The notes: a model not told the origin generated them from the letters alone. Positions 26,017 through 50,103 are shown, counted from the stretch's first letter. The stretch: DNA of 64,000 nucleotides from Dehalococcoidia bacterium (GCA_021462855.1 JAJTXQ010000021.1:1430-65429); one strand, 5' to 3'. A program made the numbers and translations.

Positions 26017-26439
26017 TCAGGCGGCGGCAGCGAGCGGCGCGGGCTCCTCCGCGACGAGCGGCGTCGGCTCTGCCGCTGCCGCTTCTGCGGCCGCGAGGCC
26101 GAGCGCGGCGGCGACGGTGTGCAGGTCGTCGAGCAGGTCGGCGATGTCCACCTCGCCGGCGAGGTCGAGGATCACCGAGCGGTCATCCTCCATCGACTCG
26201 GTGTTGTTGAACATGCTGAGGAGCGCGTCGGCGCCACCGAGCGCGTCGGGCGCGGGAGCTTCCGCCACGGGCGCGGCCTCCCCTGCCGGCGCTTCGTCGG
26301 GCGTGCCCGGCCCGGCGCTGTCCTGCCCTGGCTCGGGCTCCCCGGCCGGCGCGAAGGCGCCCGTCAGGGCGTCATCGGCTTCATCGGCTTCGCCGGCTGG
26401 CGCCGCGGGCTCGTCGTCCTTCTTCTTTGTGAAGGCCAT
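26017..26439 (-). CDS. Small acidic, low-complexity (probably disordered) protein downstream of the ArlI-like gene
   Basis: GGGAGG 6 nt upstream of the ATG. 140 aa, Ala/Glu/Pro/Asp-rich. Third codon positions are GC-biased as in real genes. Confidence 0.5.
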   Translation of the reverse strand: MAFTKKKDDEPAAPAGEADEADDALTGAFAPAGEPEPGQDSAGPGTPDEAPAGEAAPVAEAPAPDALGGADALLSMFNNTESMEDDRSVILDLAGEVDIADLLDDLHTVAAALGLAAAEAAAAEPTPLVAEEPAPLAAAA

Positions 26440-26574: not shown

Positions 26575-28329
26575 CTAGAACAGGCCCTGCTTTTGCGCCT
26601 TCGAGAGCAGCTTGAACAGCTCGTAGAAGTTGGCGACGCCGGAGTCGCCGAGCTTCTGCAGCAACGCGCCGCGACGGTCGACTTCCTTGTAGATCTGCCG
26701 CCGCTTCTTCTCGGACAGGCCGCGCGCCGGCGCGATGCGCTGCTCCAGGATGTAGCTGTTGTTCAGCCCGACGAACTCGAACACGTCGTTCACCGGGTCC
26801 CAGCGGAAGATCTCGACGAACGAAAAGGAGTTCGTCGAGGGATCGTAGCCGATGATCTCCGAGATGCTGAGGATGCGGCGGCCGGGCTTGCCGTTCGGCA
26901 GCCGCACCGCGCTCGCAATGACGACGACGTTCAGGTTGTCCACGTACGTCTTCGGCACGTTGATCGGCGCGCCGGTGACACGCTGGATCAGCTTCTCGAC
27001 CGTCGCGGCGTGGAACGTCGCGCACACGGCGTGGCCGGTCATCATCGCCTGGAACGCGATGTTGCCCTCCTCGCCACGGATCTCACCGATGATGATCATG
27101 TTCGGGCGCTGGCGCAGCGCGGCCTTCAGCAGGCTGAACATGTCGACGCCGCCGCCCTGCGCCGACTGGCCGCGGATCACCTCGCGGGTCCAGTTCGGGT
27201 GCGGCACCTGCACTTCCGGCGTGTCCTCGATGCTCACGATCTTCGCCCACGGCGGGATGAACGTCATCAGCGCGTTCATCAGCGTCGTCTTGCCCGAGGC
27301 CGTCTCGCCTGACACGAAGAAGTTGAGCCCCTCCTCGACGACCAGCGACAGGTAGCCGGCCATCTGCCACGTCAGCGCGCCCGAGTTGCAGATGTCGACG
27401 ATGCTGAGCGGGACGCCCATGAACTTGCGGATGGTGAAGTTGGAGCCGTTCTTCGACACATCGCCGCCGTAGACGATGTTGATACGCGAGCCGTCGGGCA
27501 GCGTGGCGTCGACGATCGGGTTGCGGAAGGTCACCGGCTTCTTGATCTTCTCGGCGAGCTTCAGGACGAAGTCGTCGAGCTCCTCGTGCTGGTCGAAGGT
27601 GATGCTGCTCTTCAACCCCTTGAAGATCTTGTGCTCGATGTACACCGGGCCGAGCCCGCTGCACGAGATGTCCTCGATCCAGTTATCGGAGATCAGCGGC
27701 TCGAGCGGGCCCATGCCCACCTTGTCGCGGATGACGGCGTACTTCAGCGCCTCGAGCTCGGACTGCGTGAGCTTGATCTTGCCGCCCCTGGCGCCGGACT
27801 TGCTGCCGCCGAACGGCAGCTTCAGGAAGCCCGCCTCACCGTCCTTTACGTTCGGCTTCGGCGCAGCCGGCGCGTCGACGACGTCGCAGCTGTCGTCGAT
27901 GGCCTGGAGCAGCCCCAGCGTCTTCTCCTCCGGCGTCGTCGCCTCGGCGAGGATCTCGACGAAGTCCAGCAGGAGGAACTCCATCTGCTCCAGCAAGTCG
28001 CCCATCGCGTCGGACCCGGGCTCGATGGCGATGTAGAAGTTCCGCGCCTCGGCGTTGTCCGGGAAGATGTGGATGAACGTGTTGTTGCCGACCGGGTAGA
28101 TCAGGTTCGGGTCCTTGAGGTCGCCCAGCTTGCGGTTGGCCTCCGGGTAATAGTCCGGCACGCCGTACTCCTGCATCGGCACCTTGTGCAGGTACGTCAT
28201 CAGGTGCGGCGCCGCCTCGGCCTGCTCCCGCAGCTCGGGCGAGAGGATGTTGTGCAGCGGGCACTGCGCGGCGCCACGCGAGTGGTCGTCGATCTCGGCA
28301 GGCGCATCGAACGGCAGGCGCTGCGGCAT
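26575..28329 (-). CDS. Archaeal-type secretion ATPase, ArlI/FlaI-like (type II/IV secretion NTPase superfamily)
   Basis: Walker A (VSGETASGKTT) and the TadA/FlaI N-terminal motif (ATLPDGSRINIV...FTIRKF). Archaeal-type signature (LLKAALRQRPNMIIIGEIRGEEG) and a FlaI-like C-terminal extension (…FRWDPVNDVFEFVG…). Confidence 0.75.
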   Translation of the reverse strand: MPQRLPFDAPAEIDDHSRGAAQCPLHNILSPELREQAEAAPHLMTYLHKVPMQEYGVPDYYPEANRKLGDLKDPNLIYPVGNNTFIHIFPDNAEARNFYIAIEPGSDAMGDLLEQMEFLLLDFVEILAEATTPEEKTLGLLQAIDDSCDVVDAPAAPKPNVKDGEAGFLKLPFGGSKSGARGGKIKLTQSELEALKYAVIRDKVGMGPLEPLISDNWIEDISCSGLGPVYIEHKIFKGLKSSITFDQHEELDDFVLKLAEKIKKPVTFRNPIVDATLPDGSRINIVYGGDVSKNGSNFTIRKFMGVPLSIVDICNSGALTWQMAGYLSLVVEEGLNFFVSGETASGKTTLMNALMTFIPPWAKIVSIEDTPEVQVPHPNWTREVIRGQSAQGGGVDMFSLLKAALRQRPNMIIIGEIRGEEGNIAFQAMMTGHAVCATFHAATVEKLIQRVTGAPINVPKTYVDNLNVVVIASAVRLPNGKPGRRILSISEIIGYDPSTNSFSFVEIFRWDPVNDVFEFVGLNNSYILEQRIAPARGLSEKKRRQIYKEVDRRGALLQKLGDSGVANFYELFKLLSKAQKQGLF

Positions 28330-28335
28330 CGGCGG

Positions 28336-29049
28336 TCAGGCCTTTGCGCTCGACACGGGGATGATGCGCATGCCGAGTCCCGGCTCGACATCGAAGTTCA
28401 CGATGTTGCCGGTCGTCTTTTCCGCGCCGCGGACCTTCGCCACTTCCAGCACCTTCATCAGCACGTCGCGCACTTCCTCGGTGCGGAGGCGCAGGTGCGC
28501 GTCGCACAGCGAGCGGATGCGCATGAACATCGCTTCCTCGAACGCGTGCGAGTGCATGGTGAAGAAGACGGTCATGTTGTTGTCCACGTACTCCTTCACC
28601 GACGTGAGGAACGACAGCGTCTGTGACTCGGGCACCTGCGACACGAACGACGTCAGCGAGTCGAGGAACACGCAGTCGAAGCGCCCCTCCAGCGTGCCGA
28701 TGTGGTCGAGCAGCTTGTGGAACGCCGTGTCGGCCGCCTCCGGCGTCATCGCGGCGGGCACCGGGTACACGTTGAACGTGCCGAGCAGGAAGAAGTCCGT
28801 CACGTCGAGGCTCAGGCTCGCCATCTGGCGGAACAGGCTGCGAGACGTGTTCTCGGTCGTGTAGAGCACGCAGCGGAACCCGCCGTTCAGCGCGCCGTGG
28901 ATGAGCTGTTGCGTGATCACGCTCTTGCCCGCGTTCGACGAGCCTTCGATGAGGATCAGCGACCCCTCGGGGATGCCGCCGCCCATCTTCTTGTCGATCT
29001 CCGTGCTGCCGGTCGACACGACGCGTCGCTCGGCGAGATCAATGCTCAT
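28336..29049 (-). CDS. KaiC/RecA-fold ATPase, ArlH/FlaH-like
   Basis: ATG with GGAGG 8 nt upstream (MSIDLAERRVVSTGSTEIDKKMGGGIPEGSLILIEGSSNAGKS). FlaH-like downstream block (YTTENTSRSLFRQMASLSLDV…YPV). 237 aa. The longer ORF N-terminus is an artefact. Confidence 0.65.
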   Translation of the reverse strand: MSIDLAERRVVSTGSTEIDKKMGGGIPEGSLILIEGSSNAGKSVITQQLIHGALNGGFRCVLYTTENTSRSLFRQMASLSLDVTDFFLLGTFNVYPVPAAMTPEAADTAFHKLLDHIGTLEGRFDCVFLDSLTSFVSQVPESQTLSFLTSVKEYVDNNMTVFFTMHSHAFEEAMFMRIRSLCDAHLRLRTEEVRDVLMKVLEVAKVRGAEKTTGNIVNFDVEPGLGMRIIPVSSAKA

Positions 29050-29279
29050 GGTCGCGGCCTCCAGCCCGATCGCGCGCATACGACAGCGCGCCGCCCGGCG
29101 CAGGGGCGCGGGCTCACTGACATTGTCGGCGCGGCGCCCGGCAAAAGGCAGGTGCGCGCACCCGCGAGATGCGCCCGCCGAATCGAACATCGGGGCGCCG
29201 CCACGCGGGCGTGCGGGGCCCGCGCGGCGCGTGCCGGGCGGTTCCCCTACGGGAGGCGCTTCCGTAGACTCATCGCCAT

Positions 29280-30701
29280 ATGCCATCGAATCTGCCGGAC
29301 AGCGTGTTCTCGCCTCGCAGCGTGGCGGTTGTCGGCGCATCGTCGAACCCGGATAGCCCGGGCCACGACTACGTCAAGGCGATCATCGAAGCCGGCTTCA
29401 CCGGCCCGCTCTACCCGATCAACCCGCGCGCGCCCGAGATCATGGGGCTGCCAGCCTACCCCGCGTTGTCCGCGGCGCCGGGCGACGTCGACCTCGTGAT
29501 CTCGTGCATCCCCGCCGACGGCGTGCTGGCGCTGATCGAGGAAGCGCGCGCGAAACGCGCGACGACGCTGCACCTGTTCACCGGCCGGTTCAGCGAGACC
29601 GGCGACCGCGACGCCGCCGCGCTCGAACAGCGCGTGAAGCAGGCCGCGCGCGATGCGGGCATCCGGATCATAGGGCCGAACTGCATGGGCGTGTTCGATG
29701 CGCGAAGCGGGCTCTCGTTCCGGCCCGACCTGCCCCGGGCCGATGGCGGCGACGTCGCGTTCATCTCACAGAGCGGCAACAACTCGGTCGAATTGATGCT
29801 GCACGGCGCGGCGCGCGGCCTGCGGTTCAGCAAGGTCGTCAGTTACGGCAACGCACTCGACCTCAGCGAGGCGGACTTCCTCGACTTCCTCGCGGCCGAC
29901 GACGCCACCCGCGTGGTCGGCGCGTACATCGAGGGTGCGACGGACGGGCGGCGCCTCCTCGACGCATTGCGCTCGTGCGCGGCGGCGAAGCCGGTCGTCG
30001 TGCTGAAGGGCGGGCGCACCGGCGCCGGTTCGCGCACCGCCGCCTCGCACACGGCGGCGCTCGCCGGGCAGCGGCAAGTATGGAGCGCCGTGCTGAAGCA
30101 GGCCGGCGCCGTCGAAGTCGAGACGTTCGACGACCTCATCGACATGCTCGTCGCGTTCGCGTTCCTGCGCCCGGGCGCCGGGACGAACGTCGGCGTCGTC
30201 GGCGGCGGCGGCGGGCGCGCCGTGCAGTCCGCGGATGTCTGCGAAGAGGCGGGGTTGCGCGTGCCGCGCCTTCCCGGCGCCATCCGCGCCATGTTGCGCG
30301 AGAAGGCGCCGCACCTCGCGGACTGGGTCGACAACCCGGTCGACCAGTCGATCCTCGCGGGCAGCGGCGTCTCCGGCGCCCGCGTGCTGGAGATGATGCT
30401 CGATGCGCCGGAGTTCGATGCGCTCATCGCCAACGTCGGCGAAGACTGGGTGCTCGGGCGCCCCGACGCGATCGAGCGGATGGCGCACCTCGTCGACCGG
30501 TTCGCCGCGATCGGCGTGAAGGCGGACAAGCCGATGGCATTCGTGCTCGGCCCCGCCGATTCGCCCGACGAGACGAAGTGGCGCGCGGTCGAGGGCGGAA
30601 AGCAACGGCTCACCGACGCCCGGCTCGCCGTGTACCCGAGCGTCGACCGCGCCGCGTCGGCGGTGGCGCGGTTCGTCCGCTTCCATGCCGGGCGCGCGTA
30701 G
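29280..30701 (+). CDS. CoA-binding acetate--CoA ligase (ADP-forming) alpha-like protein, with no beta/ATP-grasp partner in the window
   Basis: CoA-binding Rossmann motifs (SVAVVGAS, IIGPNCMG) plus succinyl-CoA-synthetase-like flavodoxin domains (VVVLKGGRTGAG). Confidence 0.7.
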   Translation: MPSNLPDSVFSPRSVAVVGASSNPDSPGHDYVKAIIEAGFTGPLYPINPRAPEIMGLPAYPALSAAPGDVDLVISCIPADGVLALIEEARAKRATTLHLFTGRFSETGDRDAAALEQRVKQAARDAGIRIIGPNCMGVFDARSGLSFRPDLPRADGGDVAFISQSGNNSVELMLHGAARGLRFSKVVSYGNALDLSEADFLDFLAADDATRVVGAYIEGATDGRRLLDALRSCAAAKPVVVLKGGRTGAGSRTAASHTAALAGQRQVWSAVLKQAGAVEVETFDDLIDMLVAFAFLRPGAGTNVGVVGGGGGRAVQSADVCEEAGLRVPRLPGAIRAMLREKAPHLADWVDNPVDQSILAGSGVSGARVLEMMLDAPEFDALIANVGEDWVLGRPDAIERMAHLVDRFAAIGVKADKPMAFVLGPADSPDETKWRAVEGGKQRLTDARLAVYPSVDRAASAVARFVRFHAGRA

Positions 30702-30706
30702 CCGCG

Positions 30707-31819
30707 TCAGGCGGCGCCGAGCGCCGATTCGATCGCGTCGCGCGCCTCCGGGCGCTTCTCTGCGTAGGCGACGAGCAGGCCAAAGCAGCCGCTGATCATC
30801 ATGTCGCCGTGCGGCGTCGCGAAGTACGGATGCAGCGCCGTGCCGCGCACCTTGCCGCGCTGCGGGCCCGTGACGGCGATGATCTCCGGCGCGGCCGCCG
30901 CACCGCGCGAGGCGTAGAAGACGCCGTGGCCCTTCGTCTCGAACACCTCCTCGTGCGGGAGCACGCCCGCCATGAGCCGCGCCGTGTAGTCGACGATGCG
31001 CTCCGGCGCCATCTCCCCCGTATGGTGCTCGTACAGGCTGATGATGCGCGTGCCCTCCAGGTGAAACGCCAGCGCGTGCATGTTCCCCAGGTTCAGCACA
31101 CCCTGCACGCCCGCCTCGCCGACGCGCGGATCTTGCAGCGCGCCGAGCGCCGCCGCCGGCCCGGTGTCGAGGAATACGACGTCGGCTTCGCCGTCCTGCC
31201 GGCGCGCACTCTCGACCATCGCGCGGGCGCGCGTCAGGTACGCCGGCAGCTCGTCCGGCAGCATCGCGAACGCGCGCAGGTCGTTGCGTTCGCCAACGAC
31301 TCGGCGCAGGTGGTCGAAGCGGAACAGGCGGTCGGAGTACCCCGGCGGCGATGCGCCGTGGTCGAGGCAGGCGACGGCGATGCCGTCGAATCGCGCCGGC
31401 ACATCAAATGCGCGCAGCGCCGCCCGGATCGCGTCGAGATCGAGGTCCTGCAGCGTGACGCGGGCGGCGCCGTTCGCGCGCGCCGCCTCGTCCTCGGATA
31501 CGATCCGCACGCCCATCCGCTCGACTGCCTCGAGGTCGTCGTCGAATGTTGCGGCCGCGTCAGGCGTCGCGTACGCCGCGAGCCCGGCGCCCAGGTGGTC
31601 CTCCAGCGCCCACGAGCACGGCCCGCCGCCCTGGTTCCCCCCCGTGAGCACCCCCGCCCGCCGCTCCGCCGTCGCCGCGCGGATCCGCCCGGCGGCGATC
31701 TGCGTCGCGCTCGGCATGACCAGCTTCACGTTGTTCTCCACGGGGAGCGCCGGGTCGAAGAGCAGGATGTCCTGCGTGCCCGTGCCCATGTCGATGGCGA
31801 GGATCTTCATCGTCGCCAT
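30707..31819 (-). CDS. DUF1786 family protein (ASKHA-fold, archaeal-type; putative PFL-activating-enzyme-like)
   Basis: N-terminal MKILAIDMGTGTQDILLFD is characteristic of DUF1786/ASKHA proteins. 370 aa. Confidence 0.55.
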   Translation of the reverse strand: MATMKILAIDMGTGTQDILLFDPALPVENNVKLVMPSATQIAAGRIRAATAERRAGVLTGGNQGGGPCSWALEDHLGAGLAAYATPDAAATFDDDLEAVERMGVRIVSEDEAARANGAARVTLQDLDLDAIRAALRAFDVPARFDGIAVACLDHGASPPGYSDRLFRFDHLRRVVGERNDLRAFAMLPDELPAYLTRARAMVESARRQDGEADVVFLDTGPAAALGALQDPRVGEAGVQGVLNLGNMHALAFHLEGTRIISLYEHHTGEMAPERIVDYTARLMAGVLPHEEVFETKGHGVFYASRGAAAAPEIIAVTGPQRGKVRGTALHPYFATPHGDMMISGCFGLLVAYAEKRPEARDAIESALGAA

Positions 31820-32198: not shown

Positions 32199-32753
32199 TT
32201 AGCCGTTGCGCCGGTATCTACGGGTGCGATCTGGCGAAGGCGGGACGTCGTCGTCGTCGCCGCCGTCGTCCACCGGAGTGCCGTGGTCGAGCGCGCGCCG
32301 TGGAGGCGGCGCCGCCTCCGGTTCATCGGCGACGCCGAGCGTGCTGCTGCTGAGCCACACGTACAGCAGCAGCACCAGGAACACGATCGAGACAATGAGC
32401 ATCAGCGCGCTGTCCGCGAACTCACGGCCGCGCAACAGCTCCCACGATACCGGGATGATCACGGCGAGCTGCGCGGCATACGGCACCCACGCCAGCAGCC
32501 GGTACTCTTCGCGCCGCCAGGCGATCAGCCCGTACACCGGCACCAGGATCAGCATCTGCGCGCCGGCGATGCGCTCGGCCGCGCCTCCGCCTCCGAGCGT
32601 CAGCGCGCCGATGCCCTGCGTCGCAAGCGCGAACCCGGCGAAGAACGACCACAACGCGAGCAGCAGCAGGAGCACGCGGAAGGCGCCCTGCGCGCTGACG
32701 ACCGACATCGCGCTATCGCGTGCATGCGGTTGCGCCGTTGCGCGGTCGTCCAT
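32199..32753 (-). CDS. Membrane protein, 4 predicted TM segments, unknown function
   Basis: Hydrophobic helices (VLLLLLALWSFFAGFALA; MLILVPVYGLIAW; AAQLAVIIPVSW; LMLIVSIVFLVLLLYVWL). 2-nt gap after the upstream membrane-protein gene. Confidence 0.45.
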   Translation of the reverse strand: MDDRATAQPHARDSAMSVVSAQGAFRVLLLLLALWSFFAGFALATQGIGALTLGGGGAAERIAGAQMLILVPVYGLIAWRREEYRLLAWVPYAAQLAVIIPVSWELLRGREFADSALMLIVSIVFLVLLLYVWLSSSTLGVADEPEAAPPPRRALDHGTPVDDGGDDDDVPPSPDRTRRYRRNG

Positions 32754-32755
32754 GG

Positions 32756-33160
32756 TCAGAGTGTATCGGTCTGGCGCGGCAGGTTGGCGGCGAGCAGCGC
32801 GAGGATGCCGCAGGCAACGACGATCGGCACGATCGCTTCACCCGCGCTGAGGTCGTCGCGCGTCCAGTGGACCCCCGCCGTGAAGACCGCCATCACCTGC
32901 TCGACGGCGGCCATCCAGATCACGAAGCGATAGCGCAGCGGGTTGCGCGCCGCCCACAGGTACGCGAACGCGAGCACGGCGCTCGCGCCGTTCACCGCAC
33001 GCGCGCCGAGCAGTCCATCGATGTCGCCGATCGAGACGAGCGGCGCGTTGGTCAGCGCGAGCAGGAAGGTGATGATGTTCCACGCGGCGAGCGCCACGAG
33101 GAGAAGCTGGAGCCGCGCCTGCGAGGTGGGGTTCGGGCGGCCGATCGGGCGGGACTGCAT
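32756..33160 (-). CDS. Membrane protein, 4 predicted TM segments, unknown function
   Basis: 134 aa. Helices (LQLLLVALAAWNIITFLLAL; SAVLAFAYLWAA; FVIWMAAVEQVMAVF; IVPIVVACGILALLAA). Confidence 0.45.
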   Translation of the reverse strand: MQSRPIGRPNPTSQARLQLLLVALAAWNIITFLLALTNAPLVSIGDIDGLLGARAVNGASAVLAFAYLWAARNPLRYRFVIWMAAVEQVMAVFTAGVHWTRDDLSAGEAIVPIVVACGILALLAANLPRQTDTL

Positions 33161-33263
33161 GCTGCCGCGATTCTAGCAGGTTCGGAGGCGTCTGCGGCGC
33201 GGGGGACGGCGAAAGCGGCCCGCTGGGCCGCCTCCACAGGTTCGTCGCGGGGACGACGACAGG

Positions 33264-33761
33264 CTACGGCTCGTCGTCATCGTACAGGTCGTCGTCTTCG
33301 TCCTCGTCCTCGTAGTCGTCGTCATCGTCGTCGCTGACGACGGCCTCGACCTCGGCGATGCCGCGCTTGCCCCAGATCGTCTCGTAGTTCTCGCCGGTGA
33401 TCGCCCGGTGCCCCTCTTCCCGCTCGAGCTGCTCGAGCTCGGTCAGGCAGCGGCCGGCCTGCCGGACCGACGCCGCCGAGCCGGTGTCGCTGAAGCGCCG
33501 GATGATGCGCTCCCAGATGCCCAGGTCAACCAGGCTCTGCACGTACTTCGGCCATGGGATGATCGTGATGCTGTCCGGGCGGCCGAAGCGCGGCCGCATC
33601 TTGCGAAGCGACTGGAAGCGCTCCTCCGGCGTGTTCGCCATCGGCACGACGCGGATCATCGGGCCATCGACGTCGCTCGTGCGGAGGTCCATCAGCAGCG
33701 TCTTGCGCAGCAACGGGAAGTACAGCGCCACCACGTCGGCGACTTCGATATTCTTGTTCAC
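33264..33761 (-). CDS. Hypothetical protein with an extreme poly-Asp/Glu C-terminal tail
   Basis: 165-aa ORF with coding-like codon bias. The last roughly 30 residues are almost entirely D/E/Y (SDDDDDDYEDEDEDDDLYDDDEP). Confidence 0.5.
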   Translation of the reverse strand: MNKNIEVADVVALYFPLLRKTLLMDLRTSDVDGPMIRVVPMANTPEERFQSLRKMRPRFGRPDSITIIPWPKYVQSLVDLGIWERIIRRFSDTGSAASVRQAGRCLTELEQLEREEGHRAITGENYETIWGKRGIAEVEAVVSDDDDDDYEDEDEDDDLYDDDEP

Positions 33762-48605: not shown

Positions 48606-49859
48606 CTAGTGTGTCGCCGGAATGTGCGCTCCCTCGAGCGGCAGGTCCGGGATGTTGTCGTGCCCCTGCTCGTCGTCGTGGCCCTCGTGCGAGCTCACCG
48701 CGAGCACCGCGAACACCAGCGTGAGCATGGCAAACACGAACGCCTGGATCGCGCCGACGAACACCTCGAGCCCGTAGAACGGCAGCGCGACCAGGAATGG
48801 CGCCAGGAACGTCATCACCAGCAGCAGGATCTCGCCCGCCAGCATGTTGCCGAAGAGCCGGAACGTGAAGCTGATGATGCGCGCGATCTCGGCGATGAAC
48901 TCCAGGATGCCGACGAAGAAGTAGATCGGGCTGCTGAAGTTCAGGAACTTGCCGGCGTACTTGAAGAACCCCAGCGCCGTGATCCCCCAGAACTCGATGA
49001 AGATCAGCGCCATGATCGCGATCGACAGCGGGGAGTTGATGTCGGTGTTCATGCTCCGCAGGTACGGGATGACGATGCCGATCTTCTTCCCGTCCGCGTC
49101 GAGCTTCGCGCGCGCCTCTTCGGCGTGCTCAAGCTTGATGTCCGTCTCGCACACTTCCTTCTCGTGGTCGTGCAGGTCCTCGCACGCCGACGTGTCGACC
49201 TTGATGCCGGCGGCCTTCGCGAGCTGCGCGTCGATCGCGCGCTCGCGCTCATGCTCGATGCAGTCCTTCTTCGCTTCCTTGAGCTCCGCGGTGTCGTGCC
49301 CGGCGGCCTTCGCCTCGTCGATCTCATCGTCGATCGGCGCGCAGGCGGCCTCGTCGACATGGAACTCGATCTCGCCCTGGCCTGGCATGATGAAGCCGAT
49401 GCCCGCCGTCTCGCGCAGCACTGTCGCCTCGTGGTGGAAGTGGTGCGCCGAAACTTCCTGCACCTTGCCGATCGAGAGGAAGCCCGGCAGCAGCGCCATC
49501 CAGTTCGCGATCCAGATGTAGACGAAGATCGTCGCGATGACGGGGAAGAAGCGGCGAGCGTTCTTCTCGCCCGCCGTCGTGATGCAGATGTTGTACAGCG
49601 CCTCGGCCACGCCTTCGATGACGTTCTGGAGGCCGCCCGGCACCATGTTCAGCTTGCGCAGCCCGAAGTACGTCACCGCGCACAGCATGATCACGACGAG
49701 CACCGACGTCACGTAGGTGTTGAGCAGCGGGAAGAAGCCGATGTCCGCGAGCTTCTCGCCCTTGATCTCGATGATCGGCTTGGGGCTCTGGAAGAACAGG
49801 AAGCCGACGGCGAGAAGCACCAGTGCGCCGGCTGCGATCGCGATCGTCTTGAAGTTCAA
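48606..49859 (-). CDS. atpB: F0F1 ATP synthase subunit a, carrying a roughly 125-aa Cys/His-rich charged insertion and a His-rich C-terminal extension
   Basis: Conserved blocks (FVYIWIANWMALLPGF…[insertion]…IPYLRSMNTDINSPLSIAIMALIFI; LFGNMLAGE with the essential Arg region). 417 aa, against about 230-280 for typical a-subunits. Confidence 0.8.
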   Translation of the reverse strand: MNFKTIAIAAGALVLLAVGFLFFQSPKPIIEIKGEKLADIGFFPLLNTYVTSVLVVIMLCAVTYFGLRKLNMVPGGLQNVIEGVAEALYNICITTAGEKNARRFFPVIATIFVYIWIANWMALLPGFLSIGKVQEVSAHHFHHEATVLRETAGIGFIMPGQGEIEFHVDEAACAPIDDEIDEAKAAGHDTAELKEAKKDCIEHERERAIDAQLAKAAGIKVDTSACEDLHDHEKEVCETDIKLEHAEEARAKLDADGKKIGIVIPYLRSMNTDINSPLSIAIMALIFIEFWGITALGFFKYAGKFLNFSSPIYFFVGILEFIAEIARIISFTFRLFGNMLAGEILLLVMTFLAPFLVALPFYGLEVFVGAIQAFVFAMLTLVFAVLAVSSHEGHDDEQGHDNIPDLPLEGAHIPATH

Positions 49860-49863
49860 CCCG

Positions 49864-50103
49864 TCACTTCTTCCCGGCCCGCTCGCGGTTCCATCGGTTG
49901 ATATCCGCGATGGTCTCCATCAGCATGCGATAGCCGCCGTAGAACGCGGCCACCAGTCCGAGAGCGAGCCCGCTGAGCGTGAGAATCCTGCCCGTGCCGA
50001 GGGCGTCATCCAGGACGTACCCGCCGATAGCCCCACCGGCGATGCACGTCGCCACGTACGACCCGAGGCCCAGGAGCCGGACTGCGGGGGTCAGGCGGTA
50101 CAT
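49864..50103 (-). CDS. AtpZ/AtpI-like small membrane protein
   Basis: 79 aa with two hydrophobic helices, GGAGG RBS, immediately upstream of atpB. Confidence 0.5.
   Translation of the reverse strand: MYRLTPAVRLLGLGSYVATCIAGGAIGGYVLDDALGTGRILTLSGLALGLVAAFYGGYRMLMETIADINRWNRERAGKK

Follow-up and report, generated by a model that had tools for sequence, protein, structure and literature searches.

In the archaellum, the hexameric ATPase ArlI (FlaI) docks onto the membrane platform ArlJ and so powers both the assembly of the filament and its rotation; it is regulated by the KaiC-like protein ArlH (FlaH). Genes for both proteins lie side by side in a stretch of 64,000 nucleotides (nt) from a Dehalococcoidia bacterium (GCA_021462855.1 JAJTXQ010000021.1:1430-65429; hereafter the window), and the original prediction of this pair offered two explanations for it: an undescribed machine, or partner genes that lie elsewhere. 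Archaella in bacteria have been described only recently, and published surveys demand that all genes lie in one locus. Comparison with related genomes indicates that the window does not hold a new machine; its locus is likely to be the detached part, encoding motor and regulator, of an archaellum gene set that has been split in two. The kind of system is known, and its layout here is unlinked.

The closest described system is the Chloroflexota archaellum, known from Litorilinea aerophila and SAR202 (Sivabalasarma et al. 2025, PMC12488501). Functional archaella were acquired horizontally by Chloroflexota from Euryarchaeota, from a donor near the Methanosarcina type, and are carried by 243 of 3,780 Chloroflexota genomes; filament and motility have been shown experimentally for L. 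aerophila only, by a cryo-electron microscopy structure and by swimming (PMC12488501). The same study defined loci by co-localisation and reports all genes in one locus. The window encodes orthologues of the same ArlH and ArlI, nested in the same clade beside the Methanosarcina type (arl2, with the gene order arlG-arlF), and its relatives carry archaellins, ArlG, ArlF and ArlJ. The layout differs from that of the described Chloroflexota archaellum in that arlH, arlI and a small acidic gene (together, the trio) form an operon of their own, from which the arlB...arlJ genes of relatives are unlinked by up to 1.57 Mb. In addition, arlJ has moved behind arlF, and duplication of the small acidic gene has given each unit its own copy.

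The inferred donor lineage is that of Methanosarcina (arl2 type; PMC12488501), in which the genes run arlB-x-arlG-arlF-arlH-arlI-arlJ, and ArlI and ArlH are 47–51% and 38–42% identical, respectively, to the proteins of the window. An acidic coiled-coil protein of ~300 amino acids (aa) follows arlJ there, whereas the protein found here has 115–150 aa; the host here is a peptidoglycan-bearing bacterium, and the cluster is split.

ArlI and ArlH

Both genes are on the minus strand. The first, arlH (28336–29049), encodes a 237-aa KaiC/RecA-fold protein that regulates the archaellum motor; arlI (26575–28329), for a hexameric secretion-type ATPase of 584 aa, follows after 6 nt. The adjacent, co-oriented pair of the original prediction is thus borne out, with all of the peptide blocks quoted for it present. 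A GGAGG ribosome-binding site precedes the arlH ATG. The GC content at third codon positions (GC3) is 0.86 and 0.96 in the two genes, compared with ~0.9 in neighbouring genes in a window of ~70% GC, and the codon usage is like that of the host, as had been proposed.

The Pfam match of ArlI is to the generic T2SSE family (PF00437) only, a secretion-ATPase superfamily that it shares with the bacterial Tad ATPases CpaF and TadA. More specific hidden Markov model (HMM) searches agree with the earlier assignment to the archaeal FlaI type rather than to CpaF/TadA: the NCBIfam equivalog NF058587 'archaellum ATPase FlaI' matches residues 45–583 with 631 bits (cut-off 550), whereas the TadA model TIGR03819 gives 160 bits against a cut-off of 373, and VirB11, GspE and PilB also leave ArlI far short. 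The best solved structure is FlaI of Sulfolobus acidocaldarius (4II7, E = 1.2e-124), compared with 3e-43 for CpaF. Its catalytic motifs are preserved and align residue for residue with 4II7 (Walker A, GETASGKT; Walker B/catalytic Glu block, IIIGEIRGEEG; His box, TGHAVCATFHA), whereas the N-terminal ~190 residues are unaligned and are of the longer euryarchaeal type. ArlI also contains NFTIRKF and LLKAALRQRPNMIIIGEIRGEEG.

ArlH begins with MSIDLAERRVVSTGSTEIDKKMGGGIPEGSLILIEG, has the Walker A motif GSSNAGKS and is a single domain of 237 aa, unlike the double-domain KaiC. It matches the Pfam KaiC family (PF06745, E = 1e-21) and the FlaH model PRK06067 (259 bits, cut-off 194), and is below the cut-off of the narrower ArlH equivalog NF052589 (180 bits, cut-off 215). 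Models of generic relatives fall well below their own cut-offs (KaiC PRK09302, 90 against 408 bits; RadA TIGR00416, 33 against 403 bits), and RecA is also far below. The best full-length structure is FlaH of S. acidocaldarius (4YDS, E = 6.7e-31). Both of the FlaH-like blocks quoted for it are present. Profile searches with PF06745 and PF00437 recover both folds, and the two proteins pass the cut-offs of the FlaI and FlaH models, which confirms the family assignment of the pair.

Partner genes in the window and in relatives

No ArlJ, archaellin, ArlG or ArlF was found in the 64 kb by tblastn, with queries from one distant locus (L002) and two close ones (L071, L075), and a scan of the window in six frames gave no class III, Flp or type IV pilin signal motif. 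The statement that the window lacks ArlJ and any archaellin or class III-signal pilin therefore stands; no archaellar gene lies within the 26–35 kb on either side of the trio, and TadB/C, Flp and TadZ are absent from the window. The class III signal (prepilin) peptidase of Chloroflexota is reported to be encoded outside the archaellum locus (PMC12488501).

With each species represented by a single genome, 68 loci were found, and their contexts were typed by tblastn. In the group with ~62% ArlI identity (for example L002, on a 2.28-Mb contig) there is a single cluster of archaellin, unnamed gene, arlG, arlF, arlH, arlI, arlJ, acidic gene and amidase. In the sister group (L019, L021, L022 and L024) an operon arlB-x-arlG-arlF-arlJ-small protein-amidase is divergently oriented, 3–7 kb upstream of arlH-arlI-acidic. 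Twenty further species representatives resemble the window, with no archaellar gene within 10 kb of the trio; the upstream flank of L023 is too short for typing. The operon arlH-arlI-acidic, three co-oriented genes, is conserved in 25 species-representative genomes (ArlI identity 75–96%), and ArlH is 72–88% identical across 25 related loci and always directly upstream of arlI. At least 21 species-representative genomes belong to the unlinked clade, which accounts for ~70 protein clusters at 90% identity; many of its members are from soil.

Members of the ArlJ band at 69–76% identity (see below) lie in operons made up of a GerE regulator, two to five copies of arlB, an unnamed gene, arlG, arlF, arlJ, a small protein and an amidase, with no arlH or arlI. 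The stator genes arlF and arlG precede arlJ, and the archaellins, present in 2–5 copies, have a class III N-terminus (...RGITGLETAIVLIAF...). Both halves were located in three genomes, in which ArlI is 77–82% identical to that of the window. JBBDXE01 has the trio on contig 28 (L020) and arlB x2...arlJ on contig 32 (L071); JBGQBE01 has the trio on contig 19 (L006/L078; ArlI 82% identical) and arlB...arlJ on contig 51 (L075). In the complete chromosome OY969567.1 (3.62 Mb) the trio is at ~57 kb (L001/L005) and arlB x5...arlJ at 1.62–1.64 Mb (L080), so that the two are 1.57 Mb apart.

Homologue searches with each half give similar pictures. For ArlI, ~90 clusters are found at 75–96% identity before a drop to ~62%. 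For ArlJ, with the L019 protein as query, there are ~10 clusters at 79–92% and ~65 at 69–76% before a drop to ~52%, and this pattern mirrors the ~70 ArlI clusters of the unlinked clade. Of the two original explanations, the undescribed machine is very probably wrong, since the pair belongs to the Chloroflexota archaellum (PMC12488501), whereas the other gains strong support from the unlinked arlB...arlG-arlF-arlJ operon in the genomes of three relatives: the partners most likely lie elsewhere in the genome.

The tandem arlB copies, which number 2–5 among close relatives, each have an upstream region of their own (L080, 3827–8200; L073, 5754–8213; L071, 6713–8208). In OY969567.1 (46.9–68.7 kb; L001/L005) the trio directly follows a type I-C CRISPR-Cas module (Cas3, Cas5d, Csd1, Cas7, Cas4 and Cas1), and Tad-like genes (TadE, TadG-like and RcpC) lie 5 kb downstream of it; the trio thus has different flanks in different relatives.

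Phylogeny and selection

In a neighbour-joining tree the ArlI of the window falls inside the Chloroflexota archaellum clade, next to Methanosarcina. Within that clade it lies inside the unlinked group, in which JBBDXE01 (L020) is basal and JBGQBE01 and OY969567 occupy a neighbouring subclade. The window thus sits between genomes in which both halves occur, and this bracketing makes it likely that arlJ and arlB are encoded in its own genome. Synteny extends beyond the trio: arlH adjoins DUF1786 and CoA-binding/ligase genes in the window (29280–31819) as it does in L077/L078 (4259–6892). Relative to arlH, the CoA-binding gene of the window points the other way from its counterpart in L077/L078, which suggests a local inversion.

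Both arlI and arlH are under purifying selection. The ratio of non-synonymous to synonymous substitution (dN/dS), calculated against eight relatives, is 0.15–0.29 for arlI and 0.09–0.27 for arlH, and the true values are probably lower, extreme GC3 bias tending to underestimate dS. Compared between the same two genomes, ArlJ is 79% and ArlI 78% identical, a similar degree of divergence. Together with the intact motifs, these values fit one co-evolving machine rather than a decaying remnant.

The small acidic protein

The third gene of the operon (26017–26439, minus strand) starts 135 nt past arlI and encodes an acidic, low-complexity protein of 140 aa; GC3 in its frame is 0.85. It has no Pfam family, and HMM searches gave no Pfam or NCBIfam match, but an acidic gene directly follows arlI in 22 related loci (tblastn). 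Its C-terminal module, ALLSMF...VILDLAGEVDIADLLDDLHTVAAALG, conforms to a consensus ..LLxMF..(about 15 aa)..LAGxVxxxDLLxELxTxAAALG, within a conserved region of roughly 50 aa. Alignment of profiles with hhalign relates it to the small proteins encoded after arlJ (93.5% probability, E = 2e-7) and to those of the unsplit loci (91.4%, E = 9e-7). This profile comparison shows that the acidic protein is homologous to the small protein found after arlJ in other Chloroflexota archaellum loci (for example L071, 11602–11973; L080, 11609–12028; L002, 13266–13619). The split clade has two such paralogues, which follow arlI and arlJ, respectively. These acidic small proteins constitute an unannotated family that accompanies the motor genes, and are a lead for further study.

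A palindrome upstream of arlH and arlB

The intergenic region upstream of arlH (29050–29279) contains the palindrome GGGTGCGCGCACC (29151–29163, not assigned to a strand), of the form GGGTG-N4-CACC, which is a candidate operator. It lies 101 nt before the arlH start codon and is the sole match to GGGTGNNNNCACC in the 64 kb, where ~0.42 would be expected by chance. An alignment of 27 arlH upstream regions reveals the conserved block GGGTGCGCGCACC-TAAATT-N14-GCCGACAAAGAT; the palindrome is exact in 16 of these orthologous regions and has at most one mismatch in 23, with its position conserved, and in most relatives it is ~100–150 nt upstream of arlH. A consensus scan for sigma-70 promoters and terminators over 25.7–29.4 kb gave nothing useful.

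The same palindrome is enriched in the unlinked operons, upstream of the arlB paralogues and of a dCache sensor gene, with 8 occurrences in L073 (0.28 expected) and 3 in L080 (0.17 expected); the regions concerned are 1693–7461 in L073, 3658–7422 in L080 and 3726–7351 in L071. This sharing suggests a candidate operator for co-regulation of the arlHI and arlB loci. A gene for a GerE/LuxR-family regulator is divergently oriented upstream of arlB in the unlinked operons, and its product is the obvious candidate to bind the palindrome and co-regulate both loci. The palindromic operator and the neighbouring regulator would represent a candidate archaellum switch in bacteria.

Proposed splitting of the archaellum gene set

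The arrangements seen among relatives are best explained by an ancestral single cluster that broke into two transcription units in this clade. One unit consists of arlH-arlI-acidic and the other of arlB(n)-unnamed gene-arlG-arlF-arlJ-small protein-amidase, headed by the GerE/LuxR regulator and the dCache sensor. The two are divergent neighbours in the sister group and unlinked, by up to 1.57 Mb, in the group of the window; the unlinking is seen in three relatives and presumed for the window genome. The GGGTG-N4-CACC element upstream of both arlH and arlB probably lets one regulator switch both loci.

Several observations count against this interpretation or weaken parts of it. The tree is a simple neighbour-joining tree without support values. 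The window genome was read for 64 kb, and the presence of its own arlJ and arlB is argued from the relatives that bracket it. No match to the palindrome occurs upstream of arlB in L075, the -10-like block that is conserved in relatives is degenerate in the window, and the link between regulator and palindrome is putative.

The main alternative is that the arlB-arlJ operon has been lost from the window's genome, leaving the trio as a relic or as a device reused for some other ATP-driven or signalling task that involves no filament. Such a loss would account for the lack of any partner gene in the 64 kb. Because the two units of this clade are physically separate, one can be lost while the other stays, and the ArlI clusters (~70) slightly exceed those of ArlJ (~65). 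All three relatives checked nevertheless retain both loci, no genome with the trio alone was found, and the dN/dS values of 0.1–0.3, the preserved Walker, Asp and His motifs and the persistence of the palindrome upstream of arlH speak against decay. We therefore regard loss as unlikely. The narrower proposal that the filament and platform operon is gone and that selection has kept the trio for a non-filament function, for example as a KaiC-like phospho-switch coupled to an ATPase, appears quite improbable, although if true it would be the first known case of a bacterium that has repurposed parts of the archaellum motor. In a weaker version of the idea, detachment of arlHI may permit the motor proteins to be regulated, or used, independently of filament synthesis.

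Two other alternatives place the ATPase outside the archaellum. An ArlI-like ATPase might power another type IV filament, such as a Tad pilus with TadB/C platform proteins, a link hinted at by L001, since in OY969567.1 genes for TadE, a TadG-like protein and RcpC lie 5–10 kb downstream of the trio, and Tad ATPases are themselves descended from archaeal pilus ATPases (PMC12488501, citing earlier work). The window, however, has no Tad or Flp genes and no Flp motif, most other loci also lack such genes beside the trio, and the link was rejected on these grounds; ArlI falls far below the TadA cut-off and scores far better against FlaI, ArlH is archaellum-specific, and a cognate ArlJ is present in relatives, including OY969567.1 itself. 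A Tad role is accordingly very improbable. Least credible of all is that the pair combines an ordinary bacterial CpaF/TadA ATPase with a generic KaiC/RadA paralogue. Both folds are indeed widespread in bacteria, and Pfam gives only T2SSE and KaiC, but the HMM scores (631 bits for FlaI against 160 for TadA; 259 for FlaH against 90 for KaiC and 33 for RadA, the last two below their own cut-offs) and the matches to solved structures (1e-124 for FlaI against 3e-43 for CpaF) rule this out, and unsplit relatives carry the same genes inside complete archaellum clusters.

We thus favour a split archaellum gene set. The split layout, the duplicated small acidic protein and the shared palindrome are not described in PMC12488501 or in a 2026 bioRxiv preprint on chemosensory-archaellum coupling, and are modest novelties at the level of organisation. 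Because arlH-arlI are far from arlB...arlJ, surveys based on co-localisation may miss the unlinked clade or score its loci as incomplete, in which case archaellated Chloroflexota are undercounted.

Host and genomic context

The window contains a complete F1Fo ATP synthase operon and genes for glutamate racemase (MurI), RecJ, GltBD, TetR/MFS and ABC proteins. The ATP synthase operon, MurI and RecJ identify the host as bacterial, and close ArlI homologues are from metagenome-assembled genomes labelled Dehalococcoidia or Chloroflexota. The host, a high-GC soil bacterium, thus belongs to the class Dehalococcoidia of the Chloroflexota, the only phylum for which functional archaella gained by horizontal transfer have been described.

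Two further features of the window lie outside the archaellum locus. The open reading frame for the a subunit of the F-type ATP synthase (48606–49919, minus strand) is unusually long, at 438 aa, and has an acidic insertion of ~130 residues, with Cys and His, between transmembrane segments. At 32199–33761 (minus strand) there are three co-oriented open reading frames without a Pfam match, which encode small polytopic membrane proteins of 134 and 184 aa and a protein of 165 aa that ends in a poly-Asp/Glu tail.

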